UHGV virus genome: UHGV-0154499
DNA length: 39,490 nt
Strand: one strand, 5' to 3'
Origin: a virus
Position numbers and translations under genes: made by a program
The notes under the pieces: generated by a model
Told to the model about the DNA's origin: nothing
What the model saw: the letters and a program-made list of their open reading frames with translations, nothing else
Databases searched by the model: none
In this document: in pieces, positions 31,102 through 34,702 of the stretch
Layout of the letters: every line of letters starts with the position of its first letter
Numbering within the stretch: the first letter of the stretch is position 1

Positions 31102-31299
31102 TCACGCAGCCGAATGGCTACGCTTTTCATAAAGTGATTGGTCAACTTTCAAATCACCTTTCGTCAGCGCTTGGATCTCAAATGCTCGTCCCTTTGGAAT
31201 AATTTCATCCCAGCCCGACACGGACGCATGAGAGATATTCAACGCCTTAGCGGTTTTCCCTACGCCACCGAAGTAAGAAATAACGTCATTCTTTTTCAT
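31102..31299 (-). CDS. cro: Cro-like HTH repressor
   Basis: 65 aa; HTH (KTAKALNISHASVSGW); divergent from cI across the operator region. Confidence 0.8.
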   Translation of the reverse strand: MKKNDVISYFGGVGKTAKALNISHASVSGWDEIIPKGRAFEIQALTKGDLKVDQSLYEKRSHSAA

Positions 31300-31398
31300 T
31301 TTTCCCTCTGGAGTTAAGTAATGCAGTGCACTGATAGTAGGATATCTTACATTAAATGGTCAAGCACTCCTACATCAGATAATGGTAGGATTGCCTAC
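31300..31398. promoter_or_regulatory. OR-like operator/promoter region between cro and cI (PR/PRM)
   Basis: Operator copies TAGTAGGATATCTTACAT (about 31335-31352) and TGGTAGGATTGCCTACAT (about 31383-31400), plus a third inverted element CCTACATCAGATAATGGTAGG. Confidence 0.65.
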
Positions 31399-32055
31399 AT
31401 GAAAATGAATGATCGAATCCGAAGCAGACGAAAAGAGCTAAAGATGACGCAATCTGTCCTGGCAAAGCTTGTCGGGGTTAATCGCGTCACCATCACCGGT
31501 TGGGAATCCGGTGACTACAAACCGGGTGGTGAAAACCTCCAGGCGCTTGCGGCTGCACTAGAAAAGACGCCGCAGTGGTTACTGGAAGGAAAGGATGATG
31601 GAAGTCAGCAACCACCAACCATGGACCCGGAGCAAAGATTCGGAATTAGGTCAGTTCCCGTTCTCACATGGGTACAGGCCGGGGAATGGACGGCCAATAG
31701 CGGAACGATCACAGAGCGGGACATTCATGACTGGGTCTATACTTCGGCTGCCGTTTCTGAAAGCGCATTTGCACTCATTGTTCGCGGCGACTCGATGACC
31801 AACCCTACAGGTGCACCAAGTATCCCCGAGGGCTCTATTGTCGTTGTAGAGCCTGATTTTGGTGATGCCAGTCAAGCTAATGGAAAAATTGTTATTGCAC
31901 AGCTTCTGGGAAGTGATGAAGCCACTATTAAAAAGTTCGTCATTGATGGGCCGCTGAAATACCTAGTACCTCTCAACCCCAATTACAGGATTTTAGAAGT
32001 CAATGGCAACTGCCGATTGGTAGGGTTAGTAAGACAAGTAATAATGGATTTATAA
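31399..32055 (+). CDS. cI: CI-like repressor (HTH plus LexA/S24 peptidase-like C-terminal domain)
   Basis: N-terminal HTH (LKMTQSVLAKLVGVNRVTITGWESG) and C-terminal S24 domain with the Ser region (IVRGDSMTNP) and the Lys-containing region (VIAQLLGSDEATIKKF); start set at MKMND. Confidence 0.88.
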   Translation: MKMNDRIRSRRKELKMTQSVLAKLVGVNRVTITGWESGDYKPGGENLQALAAALEKTPQWLLEGKDDGSQQPPTMDPEQRFGIRSVPVLTWVQAGEWTANSGTITERDIHDWVYTSAAVSESAFALIVRGDSMTNPTGAPSIPEGSIVVVEPDFGDASQANGKIVIAQLLGSDEATIKKFVIDGPLKYLVPLNPNYRILEVNGNCRLVGLVRQVIMDL

Positions 32056-32056
32056 G

Positions 32057-32082
32057 AAAACCGGGAATACCCGGTTTTTTTT
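32057..32082 (+). terminator. Intrinsic terminator directly after cI
   Basis: AAAACCGGG-aatac-CCGGTTTTTTTT starting 2 nt after the cI stop. Confidence 0.8.
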
Positions 32083-32091
32083 CGCCCCTCA

Positions 32092-32146
32092 ATGTAAGTT
32101 ATCCAACATTTCCCCTTGACCTCAAATAGTAAGTTATCCTACATTA
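32092..32146 (+). promoter_or_regulatory. OL-like operators with candidate PL promoter
   Basis: Two copies of the same 18-bp operator family as OR (ATGTAAGTTATCCAACAT and TAGTAAGTTATCCTACAT) flanking TTGACC, with a weak -10 (TACATT) inside the second operator. Confidence 0.6.
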
Positions 32147-32249
32147 TTCACATCAACAGCGAACAGGCAGGACGCCCATGAAGTAGCCGCCCGGGGCATA
32201 TGAAGGCCAGGATGATTCGCTAACACATAAATTCTCAAGGGGCTTCAGG

Positions 32250-32492
32250 ATGAAAGAGAACGAACCACATATTTATGCCGGTAGCATGAGCAACGAAGAG
32301 CTTTATCAGTGGCTGTGTAAGAAGGTTGAAGCAATGGCGCATCTTCGTCAGTTACATATGGATAAAGCCTCCTGTGTGCGAAGGCTTGAAGAAGTGGATT
32401 CAATGATCACTGAAGCTACCCTTGAATCTCAATTAGAAATTTCTCGGACAACTCAGGGTCCCATTCAGCGTCCAAATAATCAGGGAAGTTAA
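32250..32492 (+). CDS. Hypothetical 80-aa protein, first ORF downstream of the candidate PL
   Basis: ATG with moderate RBS; helical-looking composition; overlaps the 3' end of the convergent minus-strand gene, so one of the two may be spurious. Confidence 0.3.
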   Translation: MKENEPHIYAGSMSNEELYQWLCKKVEAMAHLRQLHMDKASCVRRLEEVDSMITEATLESQLEISRTTQGPIQRPNNQGS

Positions 32493-32862
32493 CTGGGTAA
32501 TTTGAGTGAGTAATGCGCGAGAGATATTCACTTGCTGGCTCCGGAAGAGCAGAGAACTGGATTTCATCGTGCAGGGCAAGCAGCGCATCAGTAAGTGTTA
32601 AATCTCGAATTACTGACAGCGGCCATTTGTATTTGAGAAGCAACTTGTGGTGAAGAGCCTGTTTTCCGTTAAGTCCATTGAGTTGATTCCCGTACTTTTT
32701 ACGGTGCTCATAGAGAATGATGTCTAGAGCACAGATTAGCACGGCGCGGTTTGTGACACAGGAAACTTCAGAGCTATCAACATAGCCACTGATTTGGATA
32801 CCGCGAAGTTGAGCAATATTGCTTTTGATCTGCGTAAAGAGGTGAGCGATTCCATTAATCAT
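32416..32862 (-). CDS. Hypothetical 148-aa protein encoded convergently inside the early-left region
   Basis: Internal ATG (MINGIAHLFTQ...) preceded by AAGGAA at 6 nt; GC lower than backbone; the upstream in-frame part of the track ORF (GTG start, Cys/Trp/Arg-rich) looks non-coding. Confidence 0.4.
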   Translation of the reverse strand: MINGIAHLFTQIKSNIAQLRGIQISGYVDSSEVSCVTNRAVLICALDIILYEHRKKYGNQLNGLNGKQALHHKLLLKYKWPLSVIRDLTLTDALLALHDEIQFSALPEPASEYLSRITHSNYPVNFPDYLDAEWDPELSEKFLIEIQG

Positions 32863-33446
32863 TTTGATTCCTTCGGGGTTGTAGGGACTTTGAAGGATAC
32901 CACCACGCCTGATGTGGTTAAAAGCAGGCCAAAGCAATAACAAGTAACTCCCTGTTCTGGCGGCCCGGTGTTTTCCCGTGTATTTCCGGTAACCGCCAGC
33001 CTTTTTCAGGGAACAACGACGAGAGCATTGACGAGCAAGGCATAAGTGCTGGTTCGATTCCAGACAGTCCCATTCAGTTGGGAGGGTTGGGCAGGGAAAA
33101 GGTTCGTTCGATTCGGACACCGGCAGTGTTCTCTTCGTTGTGGTGAATTGCAGTCCATCGAGACAACCAGAAGATAAGCATCTGGCGCCACAACCTTATT
33201 GCTGTGTGTAGTCTTGGCGGTACCAGGGTCTTCAACCTTATACAAGGGGGACGAAGATAATGTTCTACCTCGTTACCGCCCTTTTTACGCAACAGAAAAG
33301 GGCATCACCGGGCGACGGGCTCATAACCCAATCCACCCGGGCAAAAAGAAAGCGGTCTCTGCAAGCCGCCGACCAATGCAGGTGCCCTTCTCTGTTGTGT
33401 ATGGAGAAAGTTCGGCGGTTGCAGCCGCCTTAACGAGGGTAAAACC

Positions 33447-33818
33447 ATGAGTAATGACCGCATGACCGTAGTGCCAGATTTTCTTGGCGAACTGGATGCC
33501 GGCGTGTTCATGAACAAAATCGCGGCAGCACTTAATACCACCGCGCTTGGCGTTCTAAACAACGGCAACAAAGGAAAAGTAGTCCTCACCTTTGATTTTG
33601 AGCGCATGGGTAATTCCGTTGAAGAGAAGCGCGTCAAGATCAAACACAAGCTGAACTACAGCACCCCGACACCGCGTGGTAAAGCCTCCGAGGAGGACAC
33701 AACCGAAACCCCGATGTGGGTCAACAAAGGCGGGAAGCTCACCATCCTGCAGGAAGATCAGGGGCAACTGTTCGGGATCACTGGCGCGGTGGATGGAAAG
33801 CTTAAAGCGGCTCAGTGA
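33447..33818 (+). CDS. Hypothetical early protein (possibly YfdP-like, as in E. coli prophage CPS-53)
   Basis: 123 aa; first clear gene of the plus-strand early-left operon; family assignment is from memory. Confidence 0.6.
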   Translation: MSNDRMTVVPDFLGELDAGVFMNKIAAALNTTALGVLNNGNKGKVVLTFDFERMGNSVEEKRVKIKHKLNYSTPTPRGKASEEDTTETPMWVNKGGKLTILQEDQGQLFGITGAVDGKLKAAQ

Positions 33819-33874
33819 TCCGCAACAACAAACTCACTGATACCACTTCGATCATCAGTTAATAAGGAATTTTT

Positions 33875-34702
33875 ATGTCTCAGCTAGACAGCGGTACCTT
33901 CAAGCAGGTCAAAGACCTGGTTCTTTCCGGTTATCACCTGAATGATATTCATGGCCTGGCTTGCCCGACCGCATTACTGCCAGAGGGTACTGGCATTGAA
34001 AGCCTCGAGCGCTTTTCTCTGGAGCGTTTCCGCTTTCGTGGTGCAATGACCACAACCAGTATTGATGACTTCGCACGTTATTCTAAAGGTTACGCCAGCG
34101 ACAGTGAGCCAGCTCGTTGCTTTATTGACGCTGACAACATGACCGCTCGTTCAGTGTTCAACATCGGCACCCTGGATAATCCCGGTCACGCCGATAACGT
34201 TGCTTCAATCACCCTGAAGAAAACCGCCCCGTTCCGCGCGCTACTGCAGATCGATGGTCAACGCCTGAAGCAAAAGCAAATCGCCGAATGGCTGGAAGAC
34301 TGGAGCGATTACCTTCTGGCGTTTGATGCTGATGGCAATACGATGCAGATTTCCCAGGCTGCTCAGGCTGTGCGTCGTATCACTATTCAGCAAGCAACAC
34401 AGCAAGACCATGAAACTGGTGATTTCGCTGGTAAAAAATCGCTGATGCAAAGCGTTGAAGCAAGCAGCAAAGACGTAATGCCTGTGGCGTTCGAGTTCAA
34501 ATGTGTGCCGTATGAAGGTCTGGGCGAACGCCGCTTTAGCTTGCGTAACAGCCTGCTGACCAGCGATGAACCCTGCTTTGTTCTGCGCATCGTCCAACTT
34601 GAAGCCCAGGAAGAAGAGATCGCCAACGAATTCCGCGATTTGCTGATCAGCAAGTTCGAAGGTGAATCAGTGGAAACTTTCATCGGTAACTTTAAAGCCT
34701 AA
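33875..34702 (+). CDS. DUF2303-family protein (possibly YfdQ-like)
   Basis: 275 aa; N-terminus MSQLDSGTFKQVKDLVLSGYHLNDIHGLACPTALLPEGT resembles recalled YfdQ. Confidence 0.65.
   Translation: MSQLDSGTFKQVKDLVLSGYHLNDIHGLACPTALLPEGTGIESLERFSLERFRFRGAMTTTSIDDFARYSKGYASDSEPARCFIDADNMTARSVFNIGTLDNPGHADNVASITLKKTAPFRALLQIDGQRLKQKQIAEWLEDWSDYLLAFDADGNTMQISQAAQAVRRITIQQATQQDHETGDFAGKKSLMQSVEASSKDVMPVAFEFKCVPYEGLGERRFSLRNSLLTSDEPCFVLRIVQLEAQEEEIANEFRDLLISKFEGESVETFIGNFKA

Follow-up and report, generated by a model that had tools for sequence, protein, structure and literature searches.

The window analyzed here is the whole 39,490-nucleotide (nt) stretch of the UHGV virus genome UHGV-0154499, and the feature under study is a structured segment at 33120-33446 that ends directly before a yfdP-like gene (ATG at 33447, + strand; Shine-Dalgarno (SD) sequence GAGGG at 33435-33439). 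The feature is real and conserved, and is most likely a DicF-type unit that combines a small RNA (sRNA) with RNase III processing and carries the anticodon arm of the initiator tRNA (tRNAfMet) as its cargo. To its left lies a lambdoid immunity region comprising a P22-Cro-like gene (31102-31299, - strand), a cI-like gene for a repressor with helix-turn-helix and S24 peptidase domains (31399-32055, + strand), and a cI terminator hairpin (32054-32082).

A sigma-70-type promoter scan located TTGACC (32116-32121) and TACATT (32140-32145) on the + strand, separated by an 18-nt spacer and overlapped by two 17-nt operators, GTAAGTTATCCAACATT (32094-32110, +) and GTAAGTTATCCTACATT (32129-32145, +). Because this operator repeat recurs in inverted orientation in the cI-cro intergenic region (31337-31353), we assigned the promoter as pL; the early-left transcript starts at about 32152, and the scan of the + strand yielded no further sigma-70-like site between pL and 33446. 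The promoter precedes the yfdP-like gene by about 1.3 kb, which is the length of the leader. The first-pass annotation had placed the structured region before the first early gene, a position that has to be revised in view of the operator-flanked promoter at 32116-32145 and of an 80-amino-acid (aa) open reading frame (ORF) with its own SD that already begins at 32250. This ORF (32250-32492, + strand) and a 148-aa ORF on the opposite strand (32416-32862, -) both lie inside the leader, 3' of the promoter-proximal element and 5' of the RNA cassettes discussed below, with their 3' ends overlapping convergently by 77 nt (32416-32492). Neither has a match in Pfam, and both are missing from most relatives and therefore look like moron-type insertions.

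Homologues were gathered by blastn and pattern scans from phage records, about 120 IMG/VR loci and GTDB (one genome per species), giving a comparison set of about 100 related prophages for 33196-33446. Covariation was evaluated on sets of distinct, non-redundant sequences (38 for the inverted repeat singled out by the first-pass annotation, 47 for cassette C, 39 for cassette B, 60 for the hairpin before the SD and 89 for the promoter-proximal element), and 500 shuffles or slid partner columns served as controls in the tests for which they are given below; pairs altered on both sides are referred to as double changes. In the scans of phage records, IMG/VR and GTDB, the motif that defines cassette C was confined to prophages of Enterobacterales, where it occurs in Escherichia, Shigella, Salmonella, Citrobacter, Enterobacter, Klebsiella, Kosakonia, Leclercia, Mixta, Erwinia and Pantoea.

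A conserved three-way junction and the hairpins around it

Cassette C (33287-33400, + strand) is a three-way junction closed by a helix of 18-20 base pairs (bp). The closing helix, P1, is long-range and joins 33287-33306 with 33381-33400 (+), its core pairing ACGCAACAGAAAAGGGCA (33287-33304) with TGCCCTTCTCTGTTGTGT (33383-33400) directly after a T tract. Two arms are enclosed by it: P2 (33308-33340, +), which holds the invariant 22-mer GACGGGCUCAUAACCCAAUCCA (33314-33335) with an apical hairpin at 33316-33329, and P3 (33341-33379, +), a variable hairpin with short and long forms. Over the whole structure, 95% of cells are paired and 10 pairs show double changes, against 41-54% pairing in the slid controls. 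The 18 pairs of P1 are 95.7% paired, with double changes at six of them (for example, AU in 21 sequences versus CG in 21, and GC in 36 versus CG in 10), and the basal stem of P2 covaries as well (GC 24 versus AU 17). RNAalifold recovers P1 independently and adds two pairs, and the single-sequence minimum free energy (MFE) structure of the window gives the same fold (-55.4 kcal/mol, z = -5.38). The frequent G-U pairs identify the + strand as the RNA strand. In a divergent Pantoea copy the 22-mer is retained, and both P1 and the basal stem of P2 are fully re-paired (AAGGCG/CGCCUU and GUAUG/CAUGC). The invariance of the 22-mer across genera, together with the compensated stems around it, therefore points to selection on the RNA fold. 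Just downstream, a conserved GGAGAA (33403-33408, +) may pair with the U tract that precedes P1 and so lengthen the stalk in read-through RNA; the RNAalifold pairs concerned (2-126, 3-125, 4-124 and 6-122) show no double changes, and this extension is hence only suggestive.

The first-pass annotation had drawn attention to two inverted repeats in this region, both of which are present where it placed them. The first, GCCCTTTT (33278-33285) and AAAAGGGC (33296-33303), separated by 10 nt and likened loosely to boxB, does not hold up as a conserved hairpin. Although 80.8% of its cells are paired, 93 of the 500 shuffles equal this pairing and 127 equal its covariation score, and 74.8% remain paired when the partner is slid by +2; the pairing is therefore attributable to T-run and A-run composition. 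Its halves belong instead to two better-supported structures, both backed by compensatory changes: GCCCTTTT is the 3' arm and U tract of a terminator hairpin described below, and AAAAGGGC is part of the 5' strand of P1. The second repeat, CGGCGG-TTGCAG-CCGCC in the DNA, was borne out as a conserved pre-SD hairpin (CGGCGG-UUGCAG-CCGCC; 33413-33429, +) lying 5 nt upstream of the GAGGG of the yfdP-like gene. Its stem alters between lineages (GGCGG/CCGCC, GACC/GGTC, GCCCC/GGGGC and GGCGGCC/GGCCGCC) and its UGCAG loop is kept, so that of the two hairpins proposed only this one is conserved across related prophages. The hairpin stays with the leader where rdgC replaces the downstream gene, and the leader module in general is retained in front of differing genes (yfdP-like, rdgC and others). 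In some relatives the UGCAG-loop hairpin is found twice, once as P3 and once before the SD.

The region had also been described as containing only weak overlapping ORFs, and conservation of the 83-aa ORF at 33199-33450 as a translated gene had been named as one observation that would speak against a structured leader. The description is accurate and the ORF is not conserved: among the 38 homologues, the reading frame, the start position (-39 to -361) and the start codon of the ORFs over the invariant motif all vary, and in four homologues no ORF covers it. Both the 83-aa ORF and a 57-aa ORF (33260-33433) were consequently rejected as genes. It can be said for a real small gene that in most homologues two + frames run on for long stretches without a stop and that some annotations extend the yfdP-like coding sequence (CDS) upstream across the region. 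On the other side, a 25-27-nt indel falls inside the 83-aa ORF, the start codons used in the window fall within a variable loop or the seed of the sRNA module, no SD is apparent upstream of either ORF, and the substitutions are paired and compensatory rather than synonymous, all of which make a protein-coding explanation scarcely credible. Several deposited records (KU927493.2, PP925821.1, PQ793805.1 and others) carry a "hypothetical protein" or an N-terminally extended YfdP over the structured RNA, and these CDS annotations are probably mis-annotations.

The initiator-tRNA anticodon arm and its type-2 copies

The apical hairpin of P2 (33316-33329; CGGGCTCATAACCC / CGGGCUCAUAACCC) is identical over 14 nt to the anticodon stem-loop of Escherichia coli K-12 metY, and thus holds the three G-C pairs and the CUCAUAA loop, with its CAU anticodon, of tRNAfMet. 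These three G-C pairs distinguish initiator from elongator tRNAs. Outside the stem-loop, cassette C differs from tRNAfMet in having no D arm, T loop or CCA and in being closed by the 18-20 bp stalk. The tRNA finders do not call it: ARAGORN reported no tRNA in the window or at the RNA elements of about 70 loci, and the Rfam tRNA model RF00005 had no match in the window. The tRNAfMet-arm junction has no family in Rfam 15 and was not found in the literature searched, and neither catalogues of Salmonella sRNAs nor maps of RNase III targets contained anything on the 33120-33446 locus.

A variant of the arm, GACGGGCUCAUAAUCCAAUCCA, which we term type-2, was recovered at 100 further IMG/VR loci (L243-L320 among them) and in Klebsiella phages. 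In 85 of the 100 loci it starts exactly 19 nt past the last tRNA of a phage tRNA array, that tRNA being Asn, Arg, Thr, Phe or Met and the spacer being GAUAAU. Here P1 has only 6 bp (GGCCUG/CAGGCC), with RCCA after it, so that type-2 resembles the other RNAs of phage tRNA arrays in being an array unit, the last one, and in ending with RCCA. Its place as the last unit of tRNA arrays fits a separately released, trans-acting RNA. The tRNA cluster of phage T4 likewise gives rise to stable RNAs whose function is unknown. The same anticodon arm is delivered in two ways, as a terminal tRNA-like unit of arrays and inside the long stalk of an early leader. Individual type-2 copies, such as those at L128 2509-2574 and L154 2218-2284, are not called by tRNA finders, and in Klebsiella phage GZ7 a type-2 copy lies between Q and the lysis genes. 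A separate tRNA-like sequence was observed at L089 1077-1203 (- strand), where the Rfam tRNA model matches over 127 nt (43.9 bits) with 64 nt inserted in place of the anticodon arm; this match, flanked by a cassette-B-like block and a DicF-like hairpin, is not called by ARAGORN.

Such tRNA likeness raises the question of whether these sequences function as RNA at all: they could be what is left of decayed phage tRNA genes, or a site that works in the DNA, for instance an att core that stems from a tRNA-Met gene. The tRNA-derived motifs themselves (the tRNAfMet anticodon arm, and the T-loop-like UUCGAUU of cassette B), the genuine tRNAs adjoining these blocks in other phages and the failure of ARAGORN and the Rfam tRNA model to call a tRNA would all suit a remnant. 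Against both readings stand a 22-nt core that shows no variation in Escherichia, Salmonella, Citrobacter, Enterobacter, Klebsiella, Erwinia and Pantoea within compensated surrounding stems, G-U pairs that make the fold strand-specific, and a position beside the immunity region rather than the integrase. We regard this origin without function as very unlikely.

The arm could alternatively act in cis, binding the 30S P site, IF3 or MetRS and thereby recruiting or blocking ribosomes for the yfdP-like gene about 115 nt downstream, a mimicry comparable to the thrS operator or to an internal ribosome entry site. The exact three G-C pairs and CUCAUAA loop of tRNAfMet, the location of the arm in the 5' untranslated region directly upstream of the SD, and the complementarity between the loop in the window and AUGAG at the start codon are all in keeping with translational control. 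Yet the arm is invariant in front of differing downstream genes and first codons, the type-2 variant follows tRNA arrays far from any start codon, and the 18-20 bp stalk suggests excision instead, which leaves control in cis an unlikely explanation.

The DicF/STnc100-type module and RNase III processing

Immediately upstream of cassette C lies an sRNA module (33196-33287, +) made up of a conserved single-stranded seed, UUAUUGCUGUGUGUAGUCUU (33196-33215, +), a terminator hairpin whose arms are 33216-33228 and 33268-33280 (+), and a U tract (33281-33287, +) with an invariant T5 after the hairpin. The hairpin is 81% paired, seven of its 11 pairs show double changes, and none of the 500 shuffles reaches its score; its compensation is illustrated by GGCGGTACC/GGTACCGCC versus GTCGGCGTC/GACGCCGAC in ST64B. 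The likeness of GGCGGTACC, in the hairpin arm, to an RfaH ops element was considered and judged coincidental, as G8 is not a conserved position. Upstream of the terminator hairpin, seeds of at least two classes occur, UGCUGUGUG(U/A)AGUCUU in the window, SfV, ST64B and phiNP, and ACAGCCACUGCUUU in the Stx2a_1447 type, which suggests sRNA paralogues with different targets.

The Rfam search that the first-pass annotation had recommended returned no family at gathering thresholds over the whole window; in E-value mode on 32300-33900, 32925-33450 and 32040-32300 it returned a weak DicF match and nothing else. This match (RF00039; 33203-33281) scores 16.7 bits against a gathering threshold of 48, compared with 30.3 for the relative L025 and 76.7 for Qin. 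The STnc100 model (RF02076; gathering threshold 47) finds no match in the window at E <= 10, and the homologues in SfV and ST64B score 39.5 and 35.1 bits. The SfV homologue spans the entire 206-nt STnc100 model, from GGUGAAU, just past a closing helix, to the terminator, and relatives have about 55 nt upstream of the hairpin in common with the Qin dicF locus. Since relatives score higher, SfV covers the whole STnc100 model and relatives have flanking sequence in common with Qin dicF, the DicF link goes beyond chance. STnc100/PasD is a prophage-borne, mosaic sRNA family (PMC13192938); the SfV homologue of the module agrees with it in matching the full model and differs in remaining below gathering even there. 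Two other candidates for the same locus were rejected on position, svsR, which lies at the 3' end of cI (PMC12803456), and the Pas sRNAs, which lie near structural genes (PMC13192938).

The comparison with the dicBF region of Qin extends from sequence to layout. Both modules lie inside a repressor-controlled early-left operon, downstream of a cI-like gene, and both have as their 3' end, in the window a predicted one, a GGCGGUA...UACCGCC hairpin with a U tract, followed by read-through into downstream genes; in the window this is an intrinsic-type terminator of the module's own, the covarying hairpin and T5 at 33216-33287. Long-range helices flank both, and in Qin one of them coincides by size with an RNase III-dependent 5' end. 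The window differs in its score (16.7 bits, below the gathering threshold of 48), in its seed (UUAUUGCUGUGUGUAGUCUU), in a much larger hairpin interior and in its stalk cargo, as the tRNAfMet-arm junction is not present in Qin. In Qin, the 3' end of DicF is its own terminator, with a terminated transcript of 1146 nt and a read-through transcript of 1608 nt, and the 5' end of a 190-nt DicF species is RNase III-dependent (PMC10448788). That size places the 5' end near L162 2746, within the 3' strand of a helix of about 20 bp predicted there, CCAUAACGCGAAAGCGCAUGG / CCGUGCGCUUCCGGUUGUGG, which by eye resembles the closing helices of the window, ...GAGAGCAUUG / CAGUGUUCUCUUCGUUGUGG, and GGUGCCCUUCUCUGUUGUGU. 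Right after the DicF U tract, Qin also has a predicted long-range stalk of about 28 bp (L162 2936-3100, z = -4.39), the predicted outer pairs of which join the U tract to the dicB SD region and cover the dicB SD, suggesting that DicF termination or processing is coupled to dicB translation. In the window the analogous partner of the U tract is GGAGAA, with the reservation made above.

P1 itself, a long-range duplex of about 20 bp kept by compensatory change, has the form of an RNase III processing stalk. Such stalks occur in rRNA operons, T7 early mRNAs and the lambda N leader. Like them, the stalk in the window is a duplex of about two turns that brackets a structured RNA within a polycistronic transcript, and a cut in it would create the 5' end of a downstream mRNA; unlike them, its cleavage is predicted only, and the bracketed RNA is a new motif. 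Because the similar helix in Qin coincides with the RNase III-dependent processing site of DicF, partial termination followed by RNase III excision is the best model for the region. In this model, pL transcripts would reach 33196-33287, where part of them would terminate at about 33286 and yield a small RNA with a single-stranded seed, as DicF does in Qin; its 5' end could be set by RNase III in the stalk of cassette B or by RNase E. Read-through transcripts would at once form the 18-20 bp stalk between 33287-33306 and 33381-33400, and RNase III would then cut this stalk, separating the upstream RNA and freeing a three-way-junction RNA of about 75-110 nt. The yfdP-like mRNA would keep the hairpin at 33413-33429 as a 5'-proximal protective structure ahead of its SD, and the freed RNA with its initiator-tRNA anticodon arm would probably act in trans on a host factor that reads this arm. 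Conservation, the folds, their strand, the lack of coding and the likeness to the Qin dicF region in layout and sequence are what the comparisons show; the efficiency of termination, the cleavage by RNase III, and the release and function of the tRNA-like RNA are what we infer.

Several points weigh against this model. Termination, RNase III cutting and product stability in this phage are all predictions; the likeness of the helices to Qin was judged by eye, and the cleavage position in Qin derives from the reported 190-nt size rather than from a mapped coordinate. The long helix could serve otherwise, in protection from Rho or nucleases or in folding of the junction. The interior of the terminator hairpin is large and irregular (39 nt), and a simple terminator scan did not call it. 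Scores with the DicF and STnc100 covariance models are far under gathering, no seed target was identified, and the ftsZ comparison is uninformative: RNAduplex against the ftsZ translation-initiation region performed no better than with shuffled sequences even for DicF itself, which leaves this test without power. With these points taken into account, we still hold it somewhat more probable than its negation that 33120-33446 is the distal part of an untranslated, modular pL leader of about 1.3 kb in an N-less lambdoid prophage, and serves as an RNA-processing unit rather than an antiterminator.

A second unit of apparently related design precedes the first, with the same layout and a different cargo. 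It begins with a terminator-type hairpin (32957-33007, +), CTGGCGG...CCGCCAG followed by CCTTTTTC (T5), which resembles the DicF-like hairpin and lies directly 5' of cassette B (33013-33143); in L030, L079, L084 and L091 this first hairpin is fused straight to cassette C. In cassette B, a helix of 33013-33030 with 33124-33143 (+) encloses a covarying hairpin (33067-33084, +) and a pair of T-arm-like hairpins whose loop is UUCGAUU (33049-33063 and 33102-33118, +). Folded as the + strand it has an MFE of -50.9 kcal/mol (z = -3.26), compared with z = -0.76 for the - strand, and RNAalifold finds eight pairs with double changes, recovering the covarying hairpin and a T-arm-like hairpin GUyCG-UUCRAUU-CGrAC. 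By eye, its helix strands ACAACGACGAGAGCAUUG / CAGUGUUCUCUUCGUUGUGG resemble the P1 strands ACGCAACAGAAAAGGGCAUC / GGUGCCCUUCUCUGUUGUGU. The long closing helix and the T-arm mimics suggest a comparison with Y-RNA/YrlA, and cassette B has no match in Rfam. In epsilon15-like Salmonella phages (SPN9TCW; L002 3001-3130), a cassette B block is surrounded by structural genes and directly adjoins a tRNA-Arg(tct) at the 5' end of the latter.

The early-left leaders of many N-less lambdoid prophages (SfV, SfII, SfIV, ST64B, phiNP, mEp460 and some Stx2 phages) thus appear to be built from exchangeable RNA modules, in the order of an sRNA with its terminator followed by a processing stalk with structured cargo. 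The DicF/STnc100 picture, drawn from a single cryptic prophage, would thereby come to include many active phages and gain several new seed variants. A more far-reaching and quite tentative proposal, which we think rather improbable as a whole, is that enterobacterial temperate phages encode an undescribed class of tRNA-like RNAs without a D arm, marked by an invariant initiator anticodon arm and an internal loop GAC...AAUCCA, and made either as the last unit of a tRNA array (with encoded RCCA) or by RNase III excision from a pL leader. These RNAs would act in trans as decoys or inhibitors of a host factor that reads the tRNAfMet anticodon arm; along with cassette B as a double T-arm mimic and the element at 32158-32221 as a possible put analogue, the leader would form an RNA-only early "operon". 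Such a decoy could be aimed at an enzyme that cleaves initiator tRNA (a VapC-type toxin or a defence nuclease); IF3 together with the 30S P site, and MetRS, are further candidates. If the arm is a decoy for factors that read anticodon arms, the leader would provide an RNA-based counter-defence as the first event after induction.

Antitermination and the promoter-proximal element

The first-pass annotation had interpreted 33120-33446 as a structured untranslated region with a nut-like or put-like function. The former part is sustained by what we observed, a noncoding, strongly folded and conserved + strand RNA in the early-left leader; the latter part is not, and the region does not look like a lambda-nut or HK022-put antiterminator. 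A processive antiterminator acting in cis would have these hairpins, nut-like with an unrecognized N or put-like, allow RNA polymerase to read through downstream terminators. The leader does contain at least two terminator-type hairpins (32957-33007 and 33216-33287) and a conserved structured RNA, the UGCAG-loop hairpin that is doubled in some relatives (as P3 and before the SD) could be a protein-binding site, and no obvious N is present in the phage: an N-like arginine-rich protein is not evident in the Pfam matches of neighboring ORFs, and no systematic search for N analogues was made. Counting against it, the boxB-like hairpin is not supported by covariation, no boxA (CGCUCUUA-like) occurs within one mismatch in 32146-33446, and blastn-short of 32146-33446 against the nun-cI-cro region of HK022 gave 10-12-nt chance words in place of any putL or putR similarity; the blastn families of putL and of this leader among phages are disjoint. 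The conserved junction lies downstream of both leader terminators, and because the conserved terminator is upstream of it, the junction cannot act on that terminator co-transcriptionally. The invariant arm also ends tRNA arrays in other phages, where antitermination would make little sense, and cassette C is present in one copy per genome with none on the pR side. HK022 and the present phage are alike in being N-less lambdoid phages with a structured early-leader RNA and terminators nearby. The put RNAs suppress termination in cis through the zinc-binding domain of the RNA polymerase beta' subunit. They are, however, about 70 nt long with two stem-loops upstream of the terminators, whereas the three-way junction at 33287-33400 is downstream of the leader terminators, has one copy per genome and belongs to a region (33120-33446) with no detectable similarity to put. 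Antitermination by 33120-33446 is accordingly quite improbable.

A different part of the leader offers a closer parallel. The first ~65 nt of the pL transcript (32158-32221, +) are almost invariant in the 89 distinct sequences and stand behind at least a dozen promoter/operator types, which indicates heteroimmune phages. In this promoter-proximal element, AGCGAA/UUCGCU forms the closing stem, GGC-AGGAC-GCC an invariant hairpin and 32190-32211 a covarying one; 94% of its cells are paired, and none of the 500 shuffles reaches its covariation score. The structure emerged from covariation only, a single-sequence fold of 32146-32245 showing no excess stability (z = +1.56). The element is present in a single copy per phage and matches no Rfam family, and its model, R2, finds nothing in HK022. 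It shares with put a promoter-proximal position, a length of about 70 nt and the motifs CGAAC(A)GGC and, 45-49 nt later, CAGGAUGA; it differs in fold, the shared GGAUGA standing in another structural context. We see 32158-32221 as a better put-like candidate for passage through the leader terminators than 33120-33446, a lead rather than a finding. The general idea of an RNA-based device in an N-less phage may hold and, as yet unproven, fits this element better, making it a concrete candidate for how N-less phages read through their own leader terminators. Two mini-ORFs are present in the same conserved segment, ATGAAGTAG at 32178 and ATG AAG GCC AGG ATG ATT CGC TAA at 32200-32223, the latter preceded by GGGG and not kept in relatives, where the hairpin arms change.

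Among the ORFs that neighbor the leader, Pfam placed DUF2303 on a yfdQ-like protein, gave a weak YfbR-like (HD-type) match and was otherwise uninformative. Nothing in the window reaches threshold as an equivalent of the C4 antisense RNA or isrK; in loci of the Stx2a_1447 type (L003 537-725 and L013 5052-5240), a C4 antisense RNA (about 83 bits) and isrK (64-67 bits) adjoin the antirepressor gene on the pR side.

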